Assembly: GCA_963660495.1 (NCBI GenBank)
Contig: CAVKYO010000052.1
Span: forward strand, 1-60,089
Origin: Acidaminococcus fermentans
GTDB taxonomy: Bacteria; Bacillota_I; Bacilli_A; RF39; UBA660
Length of the DNA: 60,089 nucleotides
Direction of reading: 5' to 3'
The translations under genes and the position numbers were made by a program. The notes under the pieces are model-generated. The model made no database searches and was not told the DNA's origin. It saw only the letters and a list, made by a program, of their open reading frames with translations. Shown piece after piece: positions 5,362 to 50,894 of the stretch; position 1 is the stretch's first letter, and each line of letters starts with the position of its first letter.

Positions 5362-5486
5362 ATTAATTATATATTACCCAAGTTATAGAAAAATGTAAAT
5401 GACTAAGATTGAAGTTTTTTAGTACTTTACAAAAAATTGACAAAGAAAAAGAAGATTTTTTCATCTTCTTCTTGACCTTTATTTTT

Positions 5487-6977
5487 TTAGTTATTTTTAA
5501 CAGTTTTTTGTTTGTTAACTATTAGTGTACCAATAGAAATTAGGAGTATTATTCCAAGAACGATGTAGCAAGCTGATACTGTTTCAGGATTGGCTATTTT
5601 ATTGTATATTGCTGTAACGGTTACTTTACCTTCTGGCATTATAAAGGTTCCATCATCAGTTACTTCTATTTCTTTGCCAGATTCAGTCATAACAACAATT
5701 CTTTTTAAAGTGTATCCAGCTTTTGGAGTAACATTTACTTTTATTTCTTCACCCGGTATCGCACTTGTTGCGTCTACTGCGATTTGTCCTTCTTCAGTTA
5801 CTTGTTTAGCAATGGCAAAGACTGGATATATAAAGTTTAGCTGAGCAATTCCATCTGCTCCTCTTGATATAAGTATAATTCCATTCTGAGTTCCAGTAGT
5901 ATCATAACTATTTAAAGCATAATTAACAAAATATGTTTCATCTTCATCATAAATTTCTTCCATTATTAGGTTACCTTGTAAATCGTACTTTAAAATAGCA
6001 CTTCCAAATGTTTCAGTATCTAAAGCACTTACTATATAACCGTCATATGTACCATTTGGAAGATGACTACTTTTTATAGTAAATTGTTCATAGCCTGGAA
6101 CTGTCTTTTTAAATACTTCTTTACCTGATAAATCATACTTGGCAAAATATTCATTTTCATAATCTGTTCCTATAACAATGATACCATCTACTTCCCCGGT
6201 AGCTGTATAACTTAGATTCATTTTATTTATGACATAGTCTGTTTCTATTTCAAATAAGTCTTCATCATCATTATATCTATATATTATTGACTCATATTCA
6301 TTATATTCAAATGTTGAATCATATTTTCCATTTTTTATATATATTAGTCCAGACCAAGGTTCGCCGTCAAATTCATGTGTATATAAATCGTTATGAAAAT
6401 CAGTTATATTTTTTTCAAATACAAGATTGCCTTTTAAGTCATATTTAATTAAAACGTCACCATAGCCAGTTGAAGTATTGATTGATGAGGTCCATAGTGA
6501 TATATAATATCCATCATGTTTGCCAGATTCGTCGTAACTTTTAAAGGCTCTATCGATCCATTCGCTACCAGAGCCGCCATATTGTCTTTCAAATATAGTT
6601 TTACCAGTAGTAGAATCTACTGCCGTAACTAAAAGATCGGTTTCTCCTTTTACTTCGTACTTAGAATTACCATTCCATATTTCTGTTACTTCTATACCCG
6701 TTGTTGCATCACCATTTTTTATGTAGTATACTTCATTTTCTCCTAAGTCATGCTTTATTAATTCTAAATTACCATTGGAAAAGAATAGATAGCCATCTGG
6801 TTGTCCTTTATTATTATAACTGGGATAAATTGACTCAATCTTTCCTAAAATATCTGTATTGTTTGTTGTTGATAATTTTATATCAATTGCATTAACATGT
6901 AATGGTAGTATACAAACTGACGTAATAATTAGTATTGATAATATTTTATTAAAACGTTTCATAATCAACCTCTCCAT
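5487..6977 (-). CDS. Secreted repeat protein (beta-propeller-like repeats plus an InlB-B-repeat-like Ig domain) with a C-terminal TM anchor
   Basis: 496 aa with a signal peptide (ILSILIITSVCILPLHVNA). At least 4 repeats of roughly 55-65 aa with the signature DGY...hhKYDL.GN.h.E. Then an AGYTLKRIVV...DGTFIMPEGKVTVTAIY module and a terminal TM helix plus a basic tail. Confidence 0.6.
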   Translation of the reverse strand: MERLIMKRFNKILSILIITSVCILPLHVNAIDIKLSTTNNTDILGKIESIYPSYNNKGQPDGYLFFSNGNLELIKHDLGENEVYYIKNGDATTGIEVTEIWNGNSKYEVKGETDLLVTAVDSTTGKTIFERQYGGSGSEWIDRAFKSYDESGKHDGYYISLWTSSINTSTGYGDVLIKYDLKGNLVFEKNITDFHNDLYTHEFDGEPWSGLIYIKNGKYDSTFEYNEYESIIYRYNDDEDLFEIETDYVINKMNLSYTATGEVDGIIVIGTDYENEYFAKYDLSGKEVFKKTVPGYEQFTIKSSHLPNGTYDGYIVSALDTETFGSAILKYDLQGNLIMEEIYDEDETYFVNYALNSYDTTGTQNGIILISRGADGIAQLNFIYPVFAIAKQVTEEGQIAVDATSAIPGEEIKVNVTPKAGYTLKRIVVMTESGKEIEVTDDGTFIMPEGKVTVTAIYNKIANPETVSACYIVLGIILLISIGTLIVNKQKTVKNN

Positions 6978-12189: not shown

Positions 12190-13107
12190 TCATACTAATT
12201 CATATTCTCTAACAGCAATTCTATCATCTGAGCAATATTCTATTACTAATCTATTTTCTTTTTTACAAATAATAATTCCAATTGTTTTATTTTGATTAAT
12301 TTTTTTAATATTTTTATCTATATAATTCATATATACTTGTATTTGTCCAATATGTTCTTTTTTTAGTTCTGTTACTTTCAACTCTATAACTACATAACAA
12401 TTATATTCAATATTAAATAATAATAAATCAATATAATTATATCTATCACCAAGTTTTATTTTAAATTCATTACCAACATAAGAAAAGCCATAACCTAATT
12501 GTGACAAGAACTCATCTAGATTATTAAGTATTAACTCTTTTAAAGTATATTCACTAAATTTATCATGGTCTTTACTATCTTTTATTAATATTGGATTAGG
12601 AACAATATCACTTACTACTAATCTTTCTTCAGATACTAATTTATTTCTAGTTTCTATGGATAACCTATTATATTCATTACTAATTATTTTTTCATGAAGT
12701 TCTCTTTTAGTTAAATTATTTTTTTCACAAATTTCTATATAATATATTATTTCTTCAATTTTTTTTAACACAAGCAATTCTCTATAATGGCTCCAATTCA
12801 ATTTTGTACCCATTGGGTACAATTTTTCATTACTGAAAACCTCATAAAATTTTCTCATTTTGTATAATGTACTAACTTTATATTTAGAGCCCACTTCAAT
12901 CATTAACTTTTCTGAATATTGTTTAATGATATTTTTACCATATTCTTTTCCTGCTTCATGAAGTAATTTACCAGTTTCAAAATATACTTTAATCTTATTT
13001 CTATCTTTTGAATAATCTTTAACTTTATCATATAATTCACTTTTAATTAAATTTTCTTTTATTTCATCATAATAATTCATAATTTCTTTTCCTTTTCTAT
13101 TGTTCAC
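12190..13107 (-). CDS. PDDEXK nuclease, YhcG/DUF1016 family
   Basis: 305 aa. C-terminal PD-(D/E)xK core (IDLLLF...VVIELKVTELKKEHIGQIQVYMNY) typical of DUF1016. The ORF start overlaps the comEC stop; an alternative start at 13080 follows an AAGGAA. Confidence 0.65.
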   Translation of the reverse strand: MNNRKGKEIMNYYDEIKENLIKSELYDKVKDYSKDRNKIKVYFETGKLLHEAGKEYGKNIIKQYSEKLMIEVGSKYKVSTLYKMRKFYEVFSNEKLYPMGTKLNWSHYRELLVLKKIEEIIYYIEICEKNNLTKRELHEKIISNEYNRLSIETRNKLVSEERLVVSDIVPNPILIKDSKDHDKFSEYTLKELILNNLDEFLSQLGYGFSYVGNEFKIKLGDRYNYIDLLLFNIEYNCYVVIELKVTELKKEHIGQIQVYMNYIDKNIKKINQNKTIGIIICKKENRLVIEYCSDDRIAVREYELV

Positions 13108-15190
13108 ATGTTTCTATCGTGTACCCATCACTTTTAATCTTAATTTCTATACTTCCATCCTTATCAGTTCGATAAATTTTACTATTCTTTAAAGTATTCA
13201 ACACAGACTTTTTTGGATGTCCATACTTATTGTTCTCTCCTACACTAATTAAACTATATTTAGGATTAATACTATTTATAAATTCCTTACTGCTACTTGT
13301 ATCAGAACCATGATGTCCTACCTTTAAAAAATCTATATTTTCAATATTATATTCATTTAAAATATCTTTTTCCTTCTTAGTGCTGGCATCTCCCATGAAT
13401 AAAAATTGATAATTATTATAATTAAAATAAGTAACAGTTGAATTATCATTTTCATTGTCATATACACTTGTATTTAAAAATAAAAATTTATTATTAAAGA
13501 CACTTAATTCACTTATATTTTGATAATAATTTATTTTCTTTTTGTTTAAAACTTCAATAATATTTTCTTCTAAATAATTATAATCTCCAACATTAAAAAT
13601 GACATTTTTCACAGAAAAATTATTTATTAAATTAATGGTCTCACCTAAATGATCTTGATCACCATGAGTTAAAATTAAATAATCTATTTTTCTTATACCA
13701 GAAGATTTAAATACTGGTATCGTAGTATTTTTAACAAGAGAATATTCCTTATTGCTTTTAGACCATGATGGCTTATTATAAGTTACTTTGCCTCCCGTAT
13801 CTATTAGTACAGTTTCTCTGCCAGAATATATAAGAATAGAATCTCCTTGGCCTATATCTATCATCTTTATTATTAAATCTTTTTGAAAATATGGATAAAT
13901 GTAATGAATTAGTAATAAAAAAAATAAAGGGATTAATTTAAAATAATTTTTTTTTAATAATCCTTTAATAAAAATAATTATTAAGACATAATAACTAATA
14001 TAAAAAATAAAATTAATTCTTGGAAAAGTTATTATTAATAATCTGTTGTTACTAAAAAGTAGTGATACTTCTTCTAAAATTTTAATTAGTACCTCATATA
14101 TTGGCAAAATAACTGGGACAACAAGAGTAATTAATGATAAGGGAAAAACAATGATACTTACATATGGAATAAAAAATAAATTATAAAATATACTTGAAAT
14201 ATTAATTTGATAAAAACTATATAGACTAATTGGTATACTTACTAGAAATGATATAATAGAAGTCTTTAATAGACCTAGTAAATAATTACTACTTGTTAGA
14301 TACTTTGCAGTTACAATTAAAGAGAAACTTATAACAAAGGAATACCAAAATCCAACATCGAATATGTAATTATAATTAATAAGTAAAGATAATGATAATA
14401 TTATAATAAAAATATTTACGGGTTTTACATAAAAATAATAAACTTTATTTAAAGTAAATAATATGTAGAATAATACGCCTCTTAAGATAGAGGGAGAAAA
14501 GCCTACTAAAAGTAAATATATTATTAAAATTAAGGAGGTAATATAATAACGTTTTTCTTCTTTCACTTTAAATCTTTTTAATATTTTTGTAATAATTGAT
14601 GATAATAAAGTTATATGCATACCGGATATAGCGAATAAGTGACTTATACCATTTTCTTGATAACTTGACATTACTTTAGTACTTAAATTCGACTTATCTC
14701 CTAATAAAAATGTTTTTAAATAAGCATTTTTTTCTGATAAATTGACGATTATATTTTTTAATATGTAATAAATGTTTTTATTACTAGATATTTTTTTTAT
14801 ACTTGTTGAGGTTATTGTATAATGAATATTTTTATGTTTTAAATATGAATGATAATTAAAAAGATATTTAGAGGTATTTTTCTTAGGTTTTGTTAATTCT
14901 CCAGTTACTTCTATGGTGTCTCCAAGATGAAATTCTTCTTTAAAATTTGCTTTTTCTTCTTCAGTTTCAAAATAATATGTTACTAATAACTTTTCTTTAT
15001 TTTTAATTGTTAGACTTAGTTTATTACCAGAAATTGATGAAGATATTATCTTGGCTTTTATACTTTTTATATTTTCATTATATATACTTTCTCTTGGTAT
15101 GCAGAGATTTATTATTGTGATAAATATAGTAATTAAAAGTAAAATATAATATATATAATCATGTAGTAATAGAGTCCTTAATTTGAGCAT
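13097..15190 (-). CDS. comEC: DNA internalisation competence protein ComEC/Rec2
   Basis: 697 aa. Polytopic competence domain plus a C-terminal metallo-beta-lactamase domain (LTHGDQDHLG, GHHGS). Confidence 0.9.
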   Translation of the reverse strand: MLKLRTLLLHDYIYYILLLITIFITIINLCIPRESIYNENIKSIKAKIISSSISGNKLSLTIKNKEKLLVTYYFETEEEKANFKEEFHLGDTIEVTGELTKPKKNTSKYLFNYHSYLKHKNIHYTITSTSIKKISSNKNIYYILKNIIVNLSEKNAYLKTFLLGDKSNLSTKVMSSYQENGISHLFAISGMHITLLSSIITKILKRFKVKEEKRYYITSLILIIYLLLVGFSPSILRGVLFYILFTLNKVYYFYVKPVNIFIIILSLSLLINYNYIFDVGFWYSFVISFSLIVTAKYLTSSNYLLGLLKTSIISFLVSIPISLYSFYQINISSIFYNLFFIPYVSIIVFPLSLITLVVPVILPIYEVLIKILEEVSLLFSNNRLLIITFPRINFIFYISYYVLIIIFIKGLLKKNYFKLIPLFFLLLIHYIYPYFQKDLIIKMIDIGQGDSILIYSGRETVLIDTGGKVTYNKPSWSKSNKEYSLVKNTTIPVFKSSGIRKIDYLILTHGDQDHLGETINLINNFSVKNVIFNVGDYNYLEENIIEVLNKKKINYYQNISELSVFNNKFLFLNTSVYDNENDNSTVTYFNYNNYQFLFMGDASTKKEKDILNEYNIENIDFLKVGHHGSDTSSSKEFINSINPKYSLISVGENNKYGHPKKSVLNTLKNSKIYRTDKDGSIEIKIKSDGYTIETCEQ

Positions 15191-15830
15191 ATATACTATC
15201 TCCTATACCGGGTACTTGTTTGATATCTTCAATTGTTTTAAATGGACCATTGGTATTTCGATATTCTATTATTTGTTTAGCTTTTGATTGACCTATTCCT
15301 GTTAAAGTTGATAGTTCTTCTTCTGTTGCGGTATTTATTGATATTAAATTGTTACTATCAGATGATTGTTCTATACAAGCATCATTTTTTAAAGAGTTTT
15401 CATCTTTTTGGACGCATGATTCTTGGACTTGTTTTTCTATTTCTTTAGTCTTTTTAAAGTCTTCTACTTCAGAATTACTATAGACTATAATTACCATTTC
15501 ATCAGTTATTTTTTTACTTAAATTTAGAACAGTCGTATTGGCATTTTCTGTTAAGCCGCCAGCTAATTCTATACAATCTATTATTCTAGATGTACTTTTT
15601 AAAGTATAAATACCGGGATTTACTACTTCTCCTTTGATATCAATTTTATATTCTTCACTTATCACCTCTTTAGTTTCTTCTTTTTTTAGTGAGACTTTTT
15701 CTTCTTTTATCTTTTTTTCTTTAGGTCTATTACATACATATATTACTGAAATAGTTGTGATAAAGATTAAGATAAGACTCACTATAATTATTTGTTTACG
15801 ATATCGATAATGAAATGTTATTTTTATCAC
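15159..15830 (-). CDS. comEA: Competence DNA receptor ComEA (SLBB plus helix-hairpin-helix)
   Basis: TM anchor, SLBB motif (IKGEVVNPGIYTL), C-terminal HhH pair (LSTLTGIGQSKAKQIIEYR...IKQVPGIG). The exact start is uncertain because the GTG abuts an AGGAGG. Confidence 0.85.
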   Translation of the reverse strand: MIKITFHYRYRKQIIIVSLILIFITTISVIYVCNRPKEKKIKEEKVSLKKEETKEVISEEYKIDIKGEVVNPGIYTLKSTSRIIDCIELAGGLTENANTTVLNLSKKITDEMVIIVYSNSEVEDFKKTKEIEKQVQESCVQKDENSLKNDACIEQSSDSNNLISINTATEEELSTLTGIGQSKAKQIIEYRNTNGPFKTIEDIKQVPGIGDSIYAQIKDSITT

Positions 15831-15851
15831 CTCCTACTTTATTATTCGAAA
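15827..15851 (-). promoter_or_regulatory. 25-nt shared element (copy 1), cin-box-like TTCGAATA, upstream of comEA
   Basis: The minus strand reads TTTCGAATAATAAAGTAGGAGGTGA, identical over 25 nt to 50362-50386. It directly follows the terminator of the DHH gene. Confidence 0.5.
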
Positions 15852-15887
15852 AAAAAAGAAAAGTCTTAAAGAAATTTTAAAACTTTT

Positions 15888-17539: not shown

Positions 17540-18214
17540 TTAATAATTCCCAGTATCTTTTAGAGCATACCATAAATCATAGAATGTTCCATCAAGTTTA
17601 ACTGCTAAAGTAGTAACACCATTAGAAGTTTCTGCATTAGAAAGTTTAATTACTTCGTCTACACCTGATATTTTTCCATATGAAACTGGTCTGTCTTGTG
17701 CATTATTAAACATATGAACAATAGGAATATATTCTACTGTACCATCTTCTAATAATATAAATAGTGTATCACCTTGTGCATCTTGTCCCATTCCACCAAA
17801 TAATACCTCTACAATTTTTTTATCAAAGTTAATTGTAGAACTTACACGATCAGTTCTATTACTTGTCCAATTTAATCCGTAAGCTTCTACTGCTTTAGAT
17901 GGAATATAACTGAAAGTTAATACTTTCTGAGTAGTATCTACTTGTGCATTTATTCCATTTGGACCAAAATCAGCTATTAGATATTCACTTACGCTACTAT
18001 TTAATGCTTTTTTATTATCAAATGGACTTACTGCATTCTTAAAATTTGAAGCATTTACTTCTACCTTATCACTTTTTGTTACTGTAGTTTCCTTATCAGA
18101 TGTTTTTTCAGATTCTAAGTAAAAGTATGCTGTACTACCTAATGCACATACTAGTAATATTACTAGAACAACAATTACTGTTAATGAATTTTTCCCTTCT
18201 TTTTTCTTTTCCAT
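17540..18214 (-). CDS. Membrane-anchored protein, paralog A of a tandem pair
   Basis: 224 aa. The N-terminal 35 aa (MEKKKEGKNSLTVIVVLVILLVCALGSTAYFYLESE) are almost identical to paralog B. Shared C-terminal motifs: GG.GQ, DGT.EY.PI, VIKL, DG.FYDL. Confidence 0.7.
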   Translation of the reverse strand: MEKKKEGKNSLTVIVVLVILLVCALGSTAYFYLESEKTSDKETTVTKSDKVEVNASNFKNAVSPFDNKKALNSSVSEYLIADFGPNGINAQVDTTQKVLTFSYIPSKAVEAYGLNWTSNRTDRVSSTINFDKKIVEVLFGGMGQDAQGDTLFILLEDGTVEYIPIVHMFNNAQDRPVSYGKISGVDEVIKLSNAETSNGVTTLAVKLDGTFYDLWYALKDTGNY

Positions 18215-18295: not shown

Positions 18296-18415
18296 TACGT
18301 AAAGTATTAGTTTACAATTTCAAAGTTTTTTTTTACTAACTTGAACAGTCATTTTTTTATTAAATCATCTGTAATATATGGATTCTTTTTCAGTGATGAT
18401 TCATTATATTTTAAT
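18296..18415 (-). pseudogene. Dead 3' fragment duplicated from the phospholipase-C-like gene at 19256-19873
   Basis: About 75% nucleotide identity to 19256-19375 (TTACGTAAAGTA...CATCTGTAATATATGGATT...). Same 960-961 bp offset as the paralog pair. No intact ORF. Confidence 0.7.
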
Positions 18416-18420
18416 TATTT

Positions 18421-18437
18421 TTTCGAATAATAAAGTA
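18421..18437 (+). promoter_or_regulatory. Third, partial copy (17 nt) of the shared TTTCGAATAATAAAGTA element, opposite orientation
   Basis: Exact 17-nt match on the plus strand, preceded by a T-rich tract like the other two copies. Confidence 0.35.
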
Positions 18438-18476
18438 AAAAGTCAGCACGCTAGGTACTGACAGTTATGTTTTTTA

Positions 18477-19175
18477 TTATTCCCAAGCTTTGATACTTGT
18501 TAGGGATTCATGTAAATCATAGAAAGAACCATCTGCTTTTTGTGCAAGTACTGTTACATAGCTTCCAGCAGATACTTGATATAATTTAATTACATCTTTT
18601 ACTTCTGGAATAGTACCATAAGTTGTTTTAATATTATCTGGACTATCAGCTTTATATGCCTTTGCTATAGGAAGATATTCAATAGTTCCATCTTTCATTA
18701 AGAATAACATTGTGTCATGGCTTGCCTCTTGACCAAAGCCACCAATCATAACTTCTGATACTTCTTGTTCAAAAGTCATTTCTCCACGTCTTTCTTGTAT
18801 TCCATAGTCACAACTTTCTTCATTTGCAGTTACCCAACCTAGACTATATGTGAAATTTACTCCACAAGGTGATAGAGATACTGTTGCTTTTTTTCTATTG
18901 ACATCCAAAGCTAAATTTATTACTCTATTACCTGCCATTAAAGTATAAGTCTTATCAGTAGTATTTAAAGATTTACTATTGTCAAAGCCATTTACGGCTA
19001 CAGCTTTTTCAGTATTATCATTCTTACTAGCTTTACCCGTAACTACAGTTTCCTTTCCAGTTGCTCTTTCAGATTCTAAGTAAAAGTATGCTGTGCTACC
19101 TAATGCACATACTAGTAATATTACTAGAACAACAATTACTGTTATTAAATTTTTCCCTTCCTTTTTCTTTTCCAT
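18477..19175 (-). CDS. Membrane-anchored protein, paralog B of a tandem pair
   Basis: 232 aa. Same N-terminal module and C-terminal motifs as paralog A. Its own terminator is GTCAG-tacctagcgtg-CTGAC plus a T-run at about 18440-18470. Confidence 0.7.
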   Translation of the reverse strand: MEKKKEGKNLITVIVVLVILLVCALGSTAYFYLESERATGKETVVTGKASKNDNTEKAVAVNGFDNSKSLNTTDKTYTLMAGNRVINLALDVNRKKATVSLSPCGVNFTYSLGWVTANEESCDYGIQERRGEMTFEQEVSEVMIGGFGQEASHDTMLFLMKDGTIEYLPIAKAYKADSPDNIKTTYGTIPEVKDVIKLYQVSAGSYVTVLAQKADGSFYDLHESLTSIKAWE

Positions 19176-21155: not shown

Positions 21156-21320
21156 ATGTATTATTACGGTGGAGGTTCAGGATGTTGTTCTAATCAAGCT
21201 GGTTATCAAGTTCCTTATTATCCAGTTTATAATACTGGTAATAATAACTCAACTTATGCTATTATTTTAGTTTTATTTATATTATTAGTAATCGTAATTG
21301 GCACTCGTTTTTCAGCATAA
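21156..21320 (+). CDS. Tiny transmembrane protein of the YjcZ family (Gly/Cys-rich N-terminus, one TM helix)
   Basis: 54 aa, not in the ORF track: MYYYGGGSGCCSNQAGYQVPYYPVYNTGNNNSTYAIILVLFILLVIVIGTRFSA. An AAGGAGG lies 7 nt upstream and a terminator lies downstream. Confidence 0.65.
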   Translation: MYYYGGGSGCCSNQAGYQVPYYPVYNTGNNNSTYAIILVLFILLVIVIGTRFSA

Positions 21321-47137: not shown

Positions 47138-47338
47138 TTAATAATCCCTATTATTAGCACGATTTCTCTTTTGAGAATTTTTAATTCCTTCTTTTTTAGC
47201 AGCTCTTCTTCTAACACCTGGTTTATCATAAGCTTCTCTTTTTCTACATTCTGAAGGGACACCATCTCTTGCCACTTTTTGTTTGAACTTTCTTAGAGCT
47301 TGGTCCAAATTACCTCTAACAGTTACTTTAGTTGCCAT
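47138..47338 (-). CDS. rpsU: 30S ribosomal protein S21
   Basis: MATKVTVRGNLDQALRKFKQKVARDGV...REAYDKPGVRRR. Confidence 0.9.
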   Translation of the reverse strand: MATKVTVRGNLDQALRKFKQKVARDGVPSECRKREAYDKPGVRRRAAKKEGIKNSQKRNRANNRDY

Positions 47339-47417
47339 CATTATCCCTCCCTTCGTTTTTAACTAAAAAGAATTATAGCAAAACTTATCTTATTTTTCAA
47401 CAGATTTTTAGTTTTTT

Positions 47418-47582
47418 TTAACAAAAAGTCCTAAATTTCAACAAATATCGACATAAAGTGCCTACAAAAGTACCAAATTCATATAAGGATTTAATTATTT
47501 CATATATAAAAGGTATACTAAAAATTACAATTATTGCAACTATTAGTTTCCAATATTTTTTTATAATTATTCTAAAGGACAT
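47418..47582 (-). CDS. 54-aa single-TM protein, candidate bacteriocin immunity protein
   Basis: Not in the ORF track: MSFRIIIKKYWKLIVAIIVIFSIPFIYEIIKSLYEFGTFVGTLCRYLLKFRTFC. Its ATG is embedded in the last codons of peptide B (16-nt overlap), with a GGTGA 9 nt upstream. Confidence 0.4.
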   Translation of the reverse strand: MSFRIIIKKYWKLIVAIIVIFSIPFIYEIIKSLYEFGTFVGTLCRYLLKFRTFC

Positions 47583-47743
47583 AAATTATTTTCACCAAGT
47601 CTTCTTATTGATGATCCAAATCCTTTACCAGCGTCATACATCATTCCAATTATTTTAGTAAATGCACTAATAACAGTTCCTGAAATACTACTGCTACTAC
47701 CTGCATATATTTTTTTTAAGTCCATATCACTTTCCTTTTTCAA
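47567..47743 (-). CDS. Bacteriocin precursor peptide B (double-glycine-type leader ending AG)
   Basis: Not in the ORF track. The TTG start overlaps the TGA of peptide A (GGTTGA), with a GGGAGGTG 6 nt upstream. Leader (M)KKESDMDLKKIYAG, mature SSSSISGTVISAFTKIIGMMYDAGKGFGSSIRRLGENNLCPLE. The alternative ATG at 47725 has a weaker RBS. Confidence 0.6.
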   Translation of the reverse strand: MKKESDMDLKKIYAGSSSSISGTVISAFTKIIGMMYDAGKGFGSSIRRLGENNLCPLE

Positions 47744-47880
47744 CCATTACACCTCCCTGGATTAGTGAAGCCATCAAGTACACCTGAAATAAAAATTATT
47801 AAAGCTGCTATGCCAACAAGGGCTAAGACTGATACACCACCTGTTACCTTTTGTAATTCTAAATTATTAACTTTTTTCAT
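47740..47880 (-). CDS. Bacteriocin precursor peptide A (double-glycine leader)
   Basis: Not in the ORF track. The ATG lies 3 nt after the accessory-gene stop, with a GGGTGAG RBS. Leader MKKVNNLELQKVTGG, mature VSVLALVGIAALIIFISGVLDGFTNPGRCNG. Confidence 0.7.
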   Translation of the reverse strand: MKKVNNLELQKVTGGVSVLALVGIAALIIFISGVLDGFTNPGRCNG

Positions 47881-47883
47881 TAC

Positions 47884-48285
47884 TCACCCTTCCCATATAA
47901 TATTAAATATTTTAAATAATCCTATACGCTTATCTTTAAAACTTAGTTCTACTATATCGCCATCATTTAAAGACAAGCTTGTTTCCAATAAAACTAAATT
48001 GTATTTATCATTACTTGAAACAAATATATTATTATCTACTTTTCTAATAGAAAAGCTTTTCTTCTTATTATCTATATATAAATTACTATTTTTATAAATA
48101 ATATTCATATCCTTATCTTTAATATAAAGTTCTACTAAATTCTTTTTTTTAACTCTACCAATAATCAAACTATAACTATTAATTTTCTTACTATAAGTAT
48201 AAAAACAAAGTCCAAAAAACAGTGTAAATAAAAGTACTACTAAAAATATAACAATTCCTTTCTTCTCATAATTTACTAATTTCAT
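47884..48285 (-). CDS. Small membrane-anchored accessory protein of the bacteriocin exporter (putative)
   Basis: 133 aa with an N-terminal TM helix (IVIFLVVLLFTLFFGLCFY) and a beta-rich ectodomain. Overlaps the exporter stop by 20 nt. It occupies the LcnD/HlyD-type accessory slot but is much shorter. Confidence 0.45.
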   Translation of the reverse strand: MKLVNYEKKGIVIFLVVLLFTLFFGLCFYTYSKKINSYSLIIGRVKKKNLVELYIKDKDMNIIYKNSNLYIDNKKKSFSIRKVDNNIFVSSNDKYNLVLLETSLSLNDGDIVELSFKDKRIGLFKIFNIIWEG

Positions 48286-50347
48286 ATATTCTACCTTTTT
48301 CCAATTTTAAGACTCGATTAAACAACTTATTAAAATTATTTCTATGACTAATAACAATAACTGTCTTATCTTTTAAATATTCTAATACATTTTTTAGAAT
48401 AACTCTTGTTTTGTCTATATCTATCTGGCTAAAAGCCTCATCAAAAATATAAATATCACTCTTCCTAGTTAATGACCTAGCTAATATAATTCTTTGTTTC
48501 TCACCAGAACTAAAGTTAAATCCATTCTCTTCTACTAATTTTTGATAACCTAATCTGTCGTTTTTAACAATTTCATCAACTTTAGTAATCTTTGTAATCT
48601 TTAAAAACTCTTCTTTAGAAACATTCTGATTAAGCGTAATATTATTATAAAGTGTATCTGTAAATAAAGAATCATTATTACTAATATACGTAATATTATT
48701 TCTTATGTTATCCAAATGATAATGATTTATATCAATATTCTTAATCGATATAAAACCATATGGTACATTAATATATCTCATAAGCAATTTAACTAATGTA
48801 CTTTTTCCAGATCCAGATTCGCCTGTTAATAATACTTTATCCATATAAGAAATATTAAGTCTTAAGTTATTAAATAAATGTTTTTCTCCCAAATTATAAT
48901 TCAAATTGTTTATAATAACATCTCCATCTAAACGACACATTAAATAATATCCTTTACCATTAAACCTTTCCGTCCTAATGGTAAATAAATCTTCGATTCT
49001 TTCTAATGATAATTTAAAATCATGATAGCCAGTGTATAGGTTCAATAAATTTTCAAAGCAATATAGATAATAACTAAATATATTTTGATACACAAATAGT
49101 TGCCCTAAACTCATCTTATCAGATACAACAAAAAAGCATCCATAGCCAAGTATTACAATTAGCAACAAATTATTACTAATATTTTTTAGAAATAAAAATA
49201 ATTCTTCGAATAAATTAGAACTATAACTTTTTTCTAATAATTTCTGATACTTTATTTTAAAAACATCTGTGATTTTCTTTTCTAAATGACTACCTTTAAT
49301 AGTCTCAATATTAGTAATAGACTCAATCAAATAAGAATTGATTCTATCATTATAAACATTGACCTTTCTAACTTTTATAACTCTAAAATGGTTAAATATT
49401 ATTTGTGTAAAAAATAAAACAGTGCATATTAGAAAAACTATAATAAATATTTTTTTATTTAATCTAAACATTATAAAACTAAATAAAAGAAAACCTATCA
49501 AATCTGAAAATAACATACAACAAAATTGTCCTAATAAGTTCTTAATAATGTTTAAATCCCTAATTCTAGAAATAATCTCACCCGTTGTTCGATTCTTAAA
49601 ATATAAATACGGAAGTAAGAGAATATGCTTAAACGTTATAAAAGTAATTTCTAAATCCAGTTTACTTAAAATTTTTGTTAATAAAATATTTCTCATAAAA
49701 TTAGTAAATTCTTTGAAACAATAAAGGCAAAAAATGTAGATGCTCAAAAAAGTAATCAAGTTGCTTATTTTATAATTAACTGAAAATTCTAATAAATATT
49801 TAAAATGGAAGGTAGTTATGATTTGAAATAAAAAATAAATAAAAGTTAAAATGACAATTAATATTACAAACATTTTATTTTTCTTAATAAATTCTTTTAA
49901 TATCTTACGAATAATTTTACTTTTATTAAAAACTGGCAATGCTTTAACTGGCTTTAAAAATATATAATTCATACTAGACATTAATTTAAATTCACTAATA
50001 TTTAAAACTACTTTTCCCTTTGCTGGATCCATAATAAGCATTTTATTTTTTTTTAAATCAATGTCATAAATAACAACAAAGTGCTTATAGCCTTTATTAA
50101 CGATAATATGAGCAAGACAAGGTAAGTTATTTTTTTCTATTTTTGACAGGTCTCCTTTCATACCTATCGCATCAAATCCCACACTTTTAGCACCTTCTAT
50201 TAAATCATAAGCTGACACTCCAGACTTGTTTGTATTAGTAAGTTCTCTCAAATATTCCTTAGATACATCCCCATCATAAAATCTAATAACAGAAAGTAAA
50301 CAACAAATACCACAGTCTTTAATGCCATCTTGTAATACAACTTTCAT
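48266..50347 (-). CDS. Bacteriocin-processing ABC exporter with N-terminal C39 peptidase domain
   Basis: The N-terminus MKVVLQDGIKDCGICC carries the catalytic Cys; the His lies in KHFVVIYD. Six-TM domain, Walker A GESGSGKST, signature FSSGEKQRI, Walker B IYIFDEAFS. The ATG at 50347 is preferred over the track GTG at 50365. Confidence 0.9.
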   Translation of the reverse strand: MKVVLQDGIKDCGICCLLSVIRFYDGDVSKEYLRELTNTNKSGVSAYDLIEGAKSVGFDAIGMKGDLSKIEKNNLPCLAHIIVNKGYKHFVVIYDIDLKKNKMLIMDPAKGKVVLNISEFKLMSSMNYIFLKPVKALPVFNKSKIIRKILKEFIKKNKMFVILIVILTFIYFLFQIITTFHFKYLLEFSVNYKISNLITFLSIYIFCLYCFKEFTNFMRNILLTKILSKLDLEITFITFKHILLLPYLYFKNRTTGEIISRIRDLNIIKNLLGQFCCMLFSDLIGFLLFSFIMFRLNKKIFIIVFLICTVLFFTQIIFNHFRVIKVRKVNVYNDRINSYLIESITNIETIKGSHLEKKITDVFKIKYQKLLEKSYSSNLFEELFLFLKNISNNLLLIVILGYGCFFVVSDKMSLGQLFVYQNIFSYYLYCFENLLNLYTGYHDFKLSLERIEDLFTIRTERFNGKGYYLMCRLDGDVIINNLNYNLGEKHLFNNLRLNISYMDKVLLTGESGSGKSTLVKLLMRYINVPYGFISIKNIDINHYHLDNIRNNITYISNNDSLFTDTLYNNITLNQNVSKEEFLKITKITKVDEIVKNDRLGYQKLVEENGFNFSSGEKQRIILARSLTRKSDIYIFDEAFSQIDIDKTRVILKNVLEYLKDKTVIVISHRNNFNKLFNRVLKLEKGRIYEISKL

Positions 50348-50361
50348 AACGTCTTTTTCTC

Positions 50362-50386
50362 TCACCTCCTACTTTATTATTCGAAA
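50362..50386 (-). promoter_or_regulatory. 25-nt shared element (copy 2), cin-box-like TTCGAATA, upstream of the bacteriocin exporter
   Basis: The minus strand reads TTTCGAATAATAAAGTAGGAGGTGA, identical to 15827-15851. A T-rich tract lies immediately 5'. Confidence 0.5.
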
Positions 50387-50413
50387 TAAAATTAACTTTC
50401 CCACAGAAAAATG

Positions 50414-50441
50414 CAAAAAAAAGAAACAATTTCTTGTTTCT
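50414..50441 (-). terminator. Rho-independent terminator upstream of the bacteriocin operon
   Basis: The minus strand reads AGAAACAA-gaaa-TTGTTTCT followed by TTTTTTT. Confidence 0.65.
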
Positions 50442-50780
50442 TAATGTAGGGAGTGATTAGTCGTGTTATTCTAAAAAATATATTTTAACATGAGAAACAA
50501 ATATTAGTTAAAATAATCTCCCTACAGCTTTATAATAACACAGTTTCTTTTTGTAAACAAGTACTTTACTGAACAAAAATTTTGGCATTCATATAAAAGT
50601 CCTTTTATATATAAAAATATGATAAGTCTAATTATAGTATAATAAAATTCTTGTAATGCTGTGTAATTTTTATAATGATTCCATGAAGTTGCGGAAAATG
50701 TTGGTGATACCGTAGAAACATTAAATAATTTAAAAAAGTCTTAAAAATAAGATGTAAATAAGACGTAAAAATAACAAAGC

Positions 50781-50817: not shown

Positions 50818-50894
50818 TGGTGTCCGCGAGGCGACTCGAACGCCTGACCGATCGCTTAGAAGGCGATTGCTCTATCCAGCTGAGCTACGCAGAC
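50818..50894 (-). tRNA. tRNA-Arg (anticodon UCU), CCA encoded
   Basis: 77 nt: GTCTGCG-TA-GCTC-AGCTGGATA-GAGC-A-ATCGC-CTTCTAA-GCGAT-CGGTC-AGGCG-TTCGAGT-CGCCT-CGCGGAC-A-CCA. All four stems pair. Confidence 0.9.

Follow-up and report, generated by a model that had tools for sequence, protein, structure and literature searches.

The window analysed here is a 60-kb stretch of DNA (27.9% GC) from an uncultured, low-GC gut member of the Bacilli with sporulation genes. Its minus strand carries, between a tRNA-Arg gene and rpsU, a compact five-gene operon that encodes a peptidase-containing ATP-binding cassette (ABC) exporter (PCAT), a small accessory protein, two short peptide precursors (A and B) and a small membrane protein (C). 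With about even confidence, we interpret this operon as a two-peptide, class IIb-like bacteriocin system that is probably co-expressed with the DNA-uptake genes comEA-comEC. The architecture on which the initial annotation based its proposal of a class IIb-like operon holds and is conserved in relatives; the toxic function that it assigned to the peptides remains a prediction from sequence. All five open reading frames (ORFs) that it described were found, each on the minus strand. The operon, its flanks and the elements discussed below are as follows (aa, amino acids; TM, transmembrane; nt, nucleotides).

48266..50347, minus strand: PCAT with C39 peptidase, transmembrane domain and ATPase
47884..48285, minus strand: 133-aa accessory protein with an N-terminal TM helix and a small beta-rich extracytoplasmic domain
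47740..47880, minus strand: peptide A precursor, 46 aa, ATG start, with a 15-aa double-glycine leader (MKKVNNLELQKVTGG) and a 31-aa mature part
47567..47743, minus strand: peptide B precursor, 58 aa, TTG start, with a 15-aa leader (ending AG) and a 43-aa mature part
47418..47582, minus strand: C, 54 aa, single TM, with its ATG within the last codons of B
47138-47341: rpsU, flanking gene
50818-50894: tRNA-Arg(tct), flanking gene
50362..50391, minus strand: promoter-like element 5' of the exporter gene (TTTTATTTCGAATAATAAAGTAGGAGGTGA)
50415..50526, minus strand: structured RNA of ~110 nt with its own promoter and intrinsic terminator
13097..15856, minus strand: comEA-comEC operon, assigned by Pfam domains, with a twin of the promoter-like element at 15827-15856

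Gene overlaps, leaders and export

The genes of the cassette are tightly interlocked. The start of the accessory gene overlaps the end of the exporter gene by 20 nt, and the stop codon of A overlaps the start of B by 4 nt (GGTTGA), with GGGAGGTG placed 6 nt 5' of the TTG of B, just as the initial annotation had described. Two short intervals have dual coding functions: the ribosome-binding site (RBS) of B (GGGAGGTG) is encoded by conserved P-G-R-C codons of A (47745-47759), and within 47567-47590 the GGAGAA RBS of C coincides with Gly-Glu codons of B, with the ATG of C formed from the Leu-Cys codons (TTA-TGT) of B. The public gene call on the same contig starts B at an internal ATG (P0011, 52 aa). 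The upstream TTG start is supported because orthologues that lack the internal ATG keep the same 15-residue B leader (e.g., P0006, MKKESDINLKEIYAG). For the exporter, the mechanical ORF has 699 codons (48266-50365) and opens at GTG 50365; ATG 50347 is the likely start because the upstream GTG is out of frame in the relative L005.

Both leaders have 15 residues and are hydrophobic at positions -4 and -7. The A leader ends in GG, and the B leader of the window ends in AG where most orthologues have GG, which refines the earlier description of two double-glycine leaders. When all 30-90-aa ORFs in the six frames of the window are screened with a regular expression for double-glycine leaders, only A and B match, compared with a mean of 0.08 matches (maximum 1) in 100 dinucleotide shuffles, so the occurrence of the leaders exceeds chance.

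The exporter contains Peptidase_C39 (E 7.9e-30), ABC_membrane (E 2.5e-29) and ABC_tran (E 3.6e-22) Pfam domains. Its best solved relative is PCAT1 of Clostridium thermocellum (4ry2; E 7e-89, full length), it also matches ComA over its full length (E 6e-77), and its catalytic Cys (in DCG) and His (in HFVV) align with those of PCAT1. Exporters of the PCAT1/ComA type cleave their substrates behind a double-glycine site during export, and A and B are very likely to be cleaved and exported by the adjacent PCAT. The exporter differs from PCAT1/ComA in scoring below the curated cut-off of TIGR01193 (363.1 vs 523.85 bits) and in being paired with a MAG1140-like mini accessory protein. The next-best NCBIfam model for the exporter is the mycoplasma Mbov_0121 family NF045998 (317.5 bits vs a cut-off of 500; E 1.6e-94).

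Conservation and chromosomal setting

An exporter-based scan of a genome collection yields five related loci from uncultured gut Bacilli and metagenome-assembled genomes, with exporters that are 90% identical to that of the window in three loci and 57-60% identical in two. In all five, the exporter, accessory gene, A, B, C and rpsU follow in the same order with the same overlaps, so the three small frames, whose conservation in close relatives the initial annotation had proposed to check, are kept together throughout. The cassette occupies three chromosomal contexts: directly 5' of rpsU-yqeY-yqfC-yqfD, often behind spoIIIAH-gerE-gerM and tRNA-Arg and with a variable 5' flank; 3' of recD2; and with a xanthine permease gene on one side and ftsA-ftsZ on the other. 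In none of these three contexts does a sensor kinase or response regulator occur within the operon or beside it, which agrees with the earlier remark that kinase, regulator and pheromone genes are missing, and tblastn searches of plasmids with A and B give no match. On these comparisons, the cassette is a large family in fixed housekeeping-type positions, not an isolated oddity.

The adjacency of A and B is kept in related loci except in L017 and L018, and database fusions of A to B (P0095) and of the accessory protein to A (P0124, P0232) imply that adjacency of these genes is widespread. In L017 A and B are separated by an inserted gene (5363-5944; same coordinates in L018) that encodes a 193-aa member of the 2'-5' RNA ligase family; in the sister contig L019, A and B are adjacent. 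In L016, the exporter, gerM and yqfD genes are broken into several ORFs apiece; the name of this contig points to long-read assembly, and the breaks look like assembly frameshifts rather than cassette decay.

Peptides A and B

Mature A is hydrophobic (grand average of hydropathy, GRAVY, 1.37) and contains G33xxxG37, P41 and C44; mature B is amphipathic and contains G39xxxG43-S-x-x-R47-R48 and LC55PL. Both belong to sizeable families. A profile of A searched against 1.84 billion cluster representatives (50% identity; E<=1e-3) gives at least 200 clusters at 50% identity, and a profile search with B gives at least 64 relatives. Across the A alignment (n=114), G37 and C44 are invariant, G14, G15, G33 and P41 are present in at least 90% of sequences, and the consensus is a leader ending in GG and ~20 hydrophobic residues followed by G-[VI]-[IL]-[DE]-G-x-x-[NR]-P-x-x-C-N. 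The B alignment (n=48) has invariant G43, S44, R47, R48 and C55, with G39 (at least 90%), L54, P56 and L57 nearly so. The GxxxG motifs to which the initial annotation had drawn attention are therefore present and invariant or nearly so in both families. Exactly one Cys is present in the mature part of 106 of 114 A peptides and of all 47 B peptides counted.

Compared with the group of loci at 90% identity, the ratio of nonsynonymous to synonymous differences per site (pN/pS) is 0.07-0.10 for A (2-3, 1 and 12-13 differences at codon positions 1, 2 and 3) and 0.11-0.14 for B (4-5, 1 and 11-12 differences). Judged from these substitution patterns, both peptides are under purifying selection.

Two other interpretations of the peptide sequences were considered and rejected. 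CaaX-type prenylation at the C-terminal CPLE of B finds no nearby prenyltransferase or CPBP gene, and the distance from the Cys to the C-terminus varies (CPL, CNL, CKI). A prepilin-like nature of A, with a short leader ending in Gly and a hydrophobic helix, is at odds with the lack of an F-T-L-I-E motif and with a leader that fits the double-glycine consensus.

An element shared with competence genes

Three parts make up the element 5' of the exporter gene: a T-rich tract, CGAATA and AATAAAGTAGGAGGTG. A local search of the window matches it at 29 of 30 positions to 15827-15856, directly 5' of comEA, in an operon whose products carry SLBB and HHH_3 (ComEA) and Competence and Lactamase_B (ComEC) Pfam domains. 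A 22-mer (TTTCGAATAATAAAGTAGGAGG, 50365-50386) is exact at the exporter and at comEA, with 0.00 occurrences expected by chance; a third copy, with 3 mismatches, lies at 18421-18442 and precedes no gene. Related loci have variants in the same place (nGAATAAT, CTAATAAT and TACGAATA, the last being exact in L022), and the position of the motif 5' of the exporter is kept where the flanking sequence has diverged. In the relative L031 (ComEC 77% identical), the comEA element reads AGAATAATAAAGTAGGAGGTGA, with AGAATAAT replacing CGAATAAT, and the same C-to-A change occurs in the exporter elements of L001, L002 and L004, a lineage in which the membership of L031 is not proven.

The extended pneumococcal ComX motif is TTTTTNHNNNYTHTTMCGAATADWNWRRD-[TSS], where TSS is the transcription start site (PMC6560143). 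From its CGAATA core on, the element (CGAATA+ATAAAGT) fits 13 positions of this motif (CGAATADWNWRRD). We lean slightly towards co-regulation of the operon with comEA-comEC, and the element common to both is a candidate explanation for the missing kinase, regulator and pheromone gene.

Some further observations concern the comEA-comEC locus itself. The organism that carries it also has sporulation genes, namely yqfC and yqfD in the window and spoIIIAH, gerE and gerM in relatives. The sole candidate start of the mechanical comEA ORF is a GTG inside AGGAGGTG. In the distant relative L034 (ComEC 42% identical), the sequence 5' of comEA (2100-2175) contains GAGGTATTT-N11-CTGATAAT, which we take to resemble promoters of the sigma-H/SigH type (RNAGGAWWW-N11-12-RNNGAATWW).

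The third gene, C

Homologues of C have 54, 47, 45 or 56 aa, are kept in most related loci and occur in the window lineage and in two other chromosomal contexts. In this family G37 never varies and G41, R45 and L47 rarely do, and the spacing Y-[DE]-x-G-x-x-x-G-x-x-x-R-x-L is common to the C-terminal halves of B and C. A profile alignment of B with C (hhalign) scores 27.6 with a probability of 80% over 29 columns (B 27-55, C 25-53). By comparison, 200 column shuffles of C average 8.2 and never exceed 16, and a reversed alignment scores 6.3; the corresponding comparison of A with C shows no similarity. By sequence, C thus resembles a membrane-anchored version of the C-terminal module of B. One TM helix follows its basic N-terminus, so that under the positive-inside rule the B-like part would face outward.

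Selection on C, estimated in the same way as for A and B, is weaker than on either peptide (pN/pS 0.37 vs the 90% group; 7, 1 and 8 differences at codon positions 1, 2 and 3). The start codon of C is forced by the TTA-TGT codons of B, so conservation of this ATG is no independent evidence for the gene. C has no match to known immunity families in Pfam and NCBIfam and is regarded here as a candidate immunity or decoy protein.

The accessory protein and a possible link to mycoplasmas

The accessory gene adjoins the exporter gene in every related locus and is translationally coupled to it. An AlphaFold2 model of the protein (predicted local distance difference test score, pLDDT, 85) places a small beta domain between a TM helix and a C-terminal helix. 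Foldseek finds no match to this fold in the PDB at E<=0.001, with AcrA/CusB beta-barrels at E ~1. Assignment to the LcnD/ComB/HlyD type (~400-470 aa) was rejected because the protein has only 133 aa and no HlyD Pfam match, as the initial annotation had anticipated in calling it far shorter than LcnD/ComB proteins. Its score on NF045999 (the MAG1140 family) is 23.4 bits vs a cut-off of 35 (E 5.3e-5), and 10 of 16 members of the accessory family match this model weakly (E<=0.01, best E 4e-6); on these scores, the relation to MAG1140 is distant.

The Mycoplasmopsis pair NF045998 and NF045999 is thus matched by exporter and accessory protein, respectively, with both scores below the curated cut-offs, and on this basis the pairing of a PCAT with a ~130-aa protein appears to be common to the cassette and mycoplasmas. 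Weak matches to a further family, NF045747 (MPN313), occur in 9 of 114 A relatives. Titles and abstracts of the literature found under the mycoplasma locus names leave function unaddressed.

Proposed mechanism and comparison with known systems

The assembled evidence tips modestly in favour of A and B as an antimicrobial pair. In the mechanism that we propose, the PCAT would cleave behind GG in A and AG in B and export a 31-aa TM-type helix and a 43-aa amphipathic helix, in amounts that translational coupling would keep similar. Mature A and B would pair via their GxxxG motifs in the target membrane, where their conserved C-terminal cysteines may join them by a disulfide, and the pair would permeabilise related cells. 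The near absence of charge on both peptides and the marked hydrophobicity of A make a cell-associated active form probable, and killing may require cell contact. C would present its B-like module on a membrane anchor and protect the producer by occupying A or the receptor of A instead of B, and the 133-aa protein would aid export, or immunity also. Since the 22-nt element (T-tract and CGAATA, similar to the -10 region of the ComX/sigma-H family) precedes both the exporter and comEA-comEC, the operon is probably induced with the competence genes, and killing timed to competence would free DNA from neighbouring cells, as with pneumococcal cibABC.

A bolder form of this proposal would make A-B a disulfide-linked, essentially uncharged heterodimer on the producer's surface that acts as a contact-dependent 'fratricin' induced along with the DNA-uptake genes, with C as a tethered mimic of B capping A and with an export pair shared with mycoplasmas. 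Competence-linked predation of this kind would lie outside the streptococci and be common among uncultured gut Bacilli. We regard this full combination as speculative and rather unlikely. We know of no interchain disulfide in any two-peptide bacteriocin, and a literature search for one gave nothing on topic by title or abstract.

Class IIb systems combine adjacent genes for peptides that have GxxxG motifs and leaders of 15-30 residues with a dedicated ABC transporter and an operon-encoded immunity gene, and pairing of their peptides via GxxxG has been proposed (PMC2850506). Like the class IIb loci of lactococcin G (lagA and lagB, with the immunity gene lagC, the ABC gene lagD and an accessory gene), enterocin 1071 and plantaricin EF/JK, the cassette combines adjacent double-glycine precursors with a gene for a small membrane protein, a C39 exporter and an accessory protein, and both of its peptides contain GxxxG within a predicted helical hydrophobic/amphipathic pair. 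It differs from these loci in that its peptides are without detectable homology to theirs, are near-neutral instead of cationic and, in nearly all mature A and all mature B sequences, have a single Cys; its accessory protein has 133 aa instead of the ~450 aa of the HlyD/LcnD type; its small membrane protein is a B-like module; and it retains a fixed core-genome position across lineages in which the exporter is only 57-60% identical.

A precedent comes from Streptococcus pneumoniae, in which the ComX regulon includes both comEA/EC and cibABC, which encodes a two-peptide bacteriocin and the immunity protein CibC and lyses non-competent cells (PMC5295010, PMC6560143). Unlike many strain-variable bacteriocins, cibABC is universally present in the species (PMC13059744), and the fixed position of the cassette is comparable. 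Both systems have two peptides and a small protein in one operon; cibABC belongs with comEA/EC to one regulon, the cassette has a promoter-like element in common with comEA-comEC, and the activity of the cassette is likewise expected to be cell-associated. The cassette, however, brings its own PCAT and accessory protein, whereas cibABC has no transporter gene; its host belongs to uncultured low-GC gut Bacilli with sporulation genes and is not a streptococcus; and its regulation is deduced from one shared element. No NCBIfam or Pfam model links A, B or C to CibA, CibB or CibC.

Evidence against the proposal and alternative explanations

Several lines of evidence weigh against a competence-linked bacteriocin. 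The peptides are near-neutral (median net charge -0.2 for A and +0.5 for B), whereas class II bacteriocins are usually cationic. No characterised bacteriocin shows detectable homology to mature A or B, and the resemblance of A precursors to bacteriocin models lies in the leader. Pfam PF10439 (Bacteriocin_IIc) does not match window A or B at E<=1, and it matches 51 of 114 A relatives at E<=0.01 (best E 4.5e-5). On TIGR03949 (the lactobin A/cerein 7B family), window A scores 16.9 bits vs a cut-off of 21.5, but 80 of the 114 A-family members match at E<=0.01, and 35 of the 114 reach E<=1.8e-4, the estimated equivalent of that cut-off. On NF038034 (lactococcin G-beta/enterocin 1071B; cut-off 37 bits), window A scores 21.9 and window B 12.4 bits, and 59 of 114 A-family members match. 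Ten A peptides reduced to their mature parts give no match to TIGR03949 and a best NF038034 match of E 0.13; matches to all three models vanish without the leader, so this similarity is leader-driven. The B family matches no curated family in NCBIfam or Pfam. Profile libraries, with which the initial annotation had suggested checking the mature peptides, match neither mature A nor mature B to a curated family, and its remark that both sequences were unfamiliar therefore stands. A text search of the literature with the conserved A and B motifs returned irrelevant matches only. On this evidence, the mature peptides are new sets carried on a standard double-glycine export signal.

The genomic distribution and the fate of C point in the same direction. 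Core-genome conservation as deep as that of the cassette is unusual for bacteriocin loci. In L013, C (6156-6224) is cut to 22 codons, beginning MSFR like the C of the window; in this lineage, which has the most abundant B variant (P0044, 213 collection blocks), rpsU follows 112 nt behind B and the four cassette genes from the exporter to B are intact despite the short C. L022 has a C reduced to 37 codons, again with the other four genes intact. C can thus be cut short while A and B stay, which argues that it is no indispensable immunity factor.

The regulatory link has its own weaknesses. The comEA promoters compared amount to one per lineage, and the full 29-nt ComX consensus has 5 mismatches at the exporter site, a level at which shuffled sequences contain ~17 sites; this consensus is pneumococcal and does not discriminate in a window of ~28% GC. 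The consensus match is insignificant alone, so the evidence for co-regulation is the shared element. No sigma factor gene was seen among 10 window ORFs scanned, two of which were read by eye.

These weaknesses bear most directly on the possibility that the operon is an ordinary stand-alone class IIb locus with no competence link, which we consider unlikely. All class IIb features would apply to such a locus; the shared element would be a common strong promoter/5' leader module or a product of local copying, as a third copy (18421-18442) before no gene and the insignificance of the ComX fit would allow; and expression would be constitutive or set by the upstream RNA and its palindromic promoter. 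The conserved sigma-A-type promoter, RNA and terminator could regulate the operon by read-through. This explanation has to contend, however, with the exact 22-mer, which occurs in the 60 kb only at the operon and comEA-comEC (plus one copy with 3 mismatches), and with a motif position that is kept in diverged lineages, including the exact TACGAATA in L022.

A second explanation, of similarly low probability in our judgement, dispenses with the toxin. A and B would form a heterodimer, possibly disulfide-linked, in the membrane of the producer, where together with C and the 133-aa protein it would have an envelope role in the transition, competence or sporulation phase, and the system could share ancestry with the PCAT/MAG1140 pair of Mycoplasma. 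Deep conservation at core positions by rpsU and sporulation genes or by ftsA-ftsZ would be expected of such a system, as would invariant C-terminal motifs with exactly one Cys in nearly all mature peptides, near-neutral charge, the resemblance of A to a TM anchor and the loss of C without loss of A and B. The best or only non-generic NCBIfam matches of exporter and accessory protein are, moreover, the mycoplasma families NF045998 and NF045999. Nevertheless, the architecture, the GxxxG motifs and the B-like small membrane protein are those of a two-peptide bacteriocin with immunity, and cibABC demonstrates that a bacteriocin can be universal in one species. We also know of no precedent for structural membrane peptides exported by a PCAT.

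Double-glycine leaders and PCAT export are also found in pheromones of the ComC/BlpC type. That A and/or B are pheromones secreted through a ComAB-like transporter (ComAB exports ComC and BlpC; PMC5295010), for which a possible tie to competence genes would speak, is nonetheless highly improbable, because no sensor kinase or response regulator occurs in the operon or flanks in any context, a TM-like mature A of 31 aa with a GRAVY of 1.37 would be a poor diffusible signal, and two peptides translated together, each with an invariant GxxxG and Cys, suggest a heteromeric membrane-active unit.

Significance of a possible competence-linked bacteriocin

Two-peptide bacteriocin loci with double-glycine leaders and competence-induced bacteriocins are already known. 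On the sequence evidence, the new elements of a competence-linked bacteriocin in this operon would be the mature peptide families, their single Cys and near-neutral charge, the mini accessory protein with its counterpart in mycoplasma models, the B-like tethered protein and a dedicated PCAT behind a competence-type element, all in uncultured gut Bacilli with sporulation genes. To our knowledge, competence-coupled killing is so far essentially streptococcal (cibABC, cab clusters). If our interpretation is correct, it would extend to a large group of uncultured low-GC gut Bacilli through a self-contained five-gene module, and a membrane-tethered copy of one toxin subunit would be a candidate immunity principle. 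The analysis also defines three uncharacterised small-protein families (A, B and C), which gene callers and curated libraries mostly leave unnamed, and would provide a first functional handle on the PCAT/MAG1140-type pair that NCBI has modelled in mycoplasmas.

The upstream RNA and other features of the window

The structured RNA lies between tRNA-Arg and the promoter-like element of the exporter. Its promoter is of the sigma-A type and comprises a palindrome (GTAAAGTACTTGTTTACA, 50552-50569) and an extended -10; within the RNA, an outer stem is combined with an inner hairpin, whose loop (AAUAUUUGUUUCUCA) is conserved, and with a terminator (AAGAAACAA-GAAA-UUGUUUCUU) that leads into a U-run. 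The same promoter/RNA/terminator architecture is found in the window and eight related loci, with an outer stem that differs on both arms (GGGAG/CUCCC, GGAAG/CUUCC, GGAAGUG/CACUUCC, GGAAGC/GCUUCC); these variants are taken from individual folds and are not alignment counts, since MAFFT misaligns the 3' arm between subgroups. The fold of the window RNA has a z-score of -3.05, and no Rfam family matches it. It could be a small RNA or an attenuator. An antiterminator in which the loop UUUGUUUCUC mimics the 3' arm of the terminator was rejected: it holds in the window and is lost in L003 and L029.

A second copy of the palindrome (GTAAAGTATTAGTTTACA) lies on the plus strand at 18299-18316, 100 nt before the third com-box-like copy. 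Extended to 18408-18442 (plus strand), this third copy is the best match to the ComX consensus in the window (2 mismatches) and has no ORF behind it; it points antisense into a 232-aa gene (18477-19175) and runs into a hairpin. That gene is one of two tandem paralogues on the minus strand (17540-18214 and 18477-19175) whose products, of 224 and 232 aa, are membrane-anchored and have near-identical N-termini (MEKKKEGKN...VIVVLVILLVCALGSTAYFYLESE) and no Pfam match. Unrelated to the cassette, a 54-aa ORF on the plus strand at 21156-21320 (MYYYGGGSGCCSNQAGYQVPYYPVYNTGNNN...) has an N-terminus rich in Gly, Cys and Tyr and a C-terminal TM helix.

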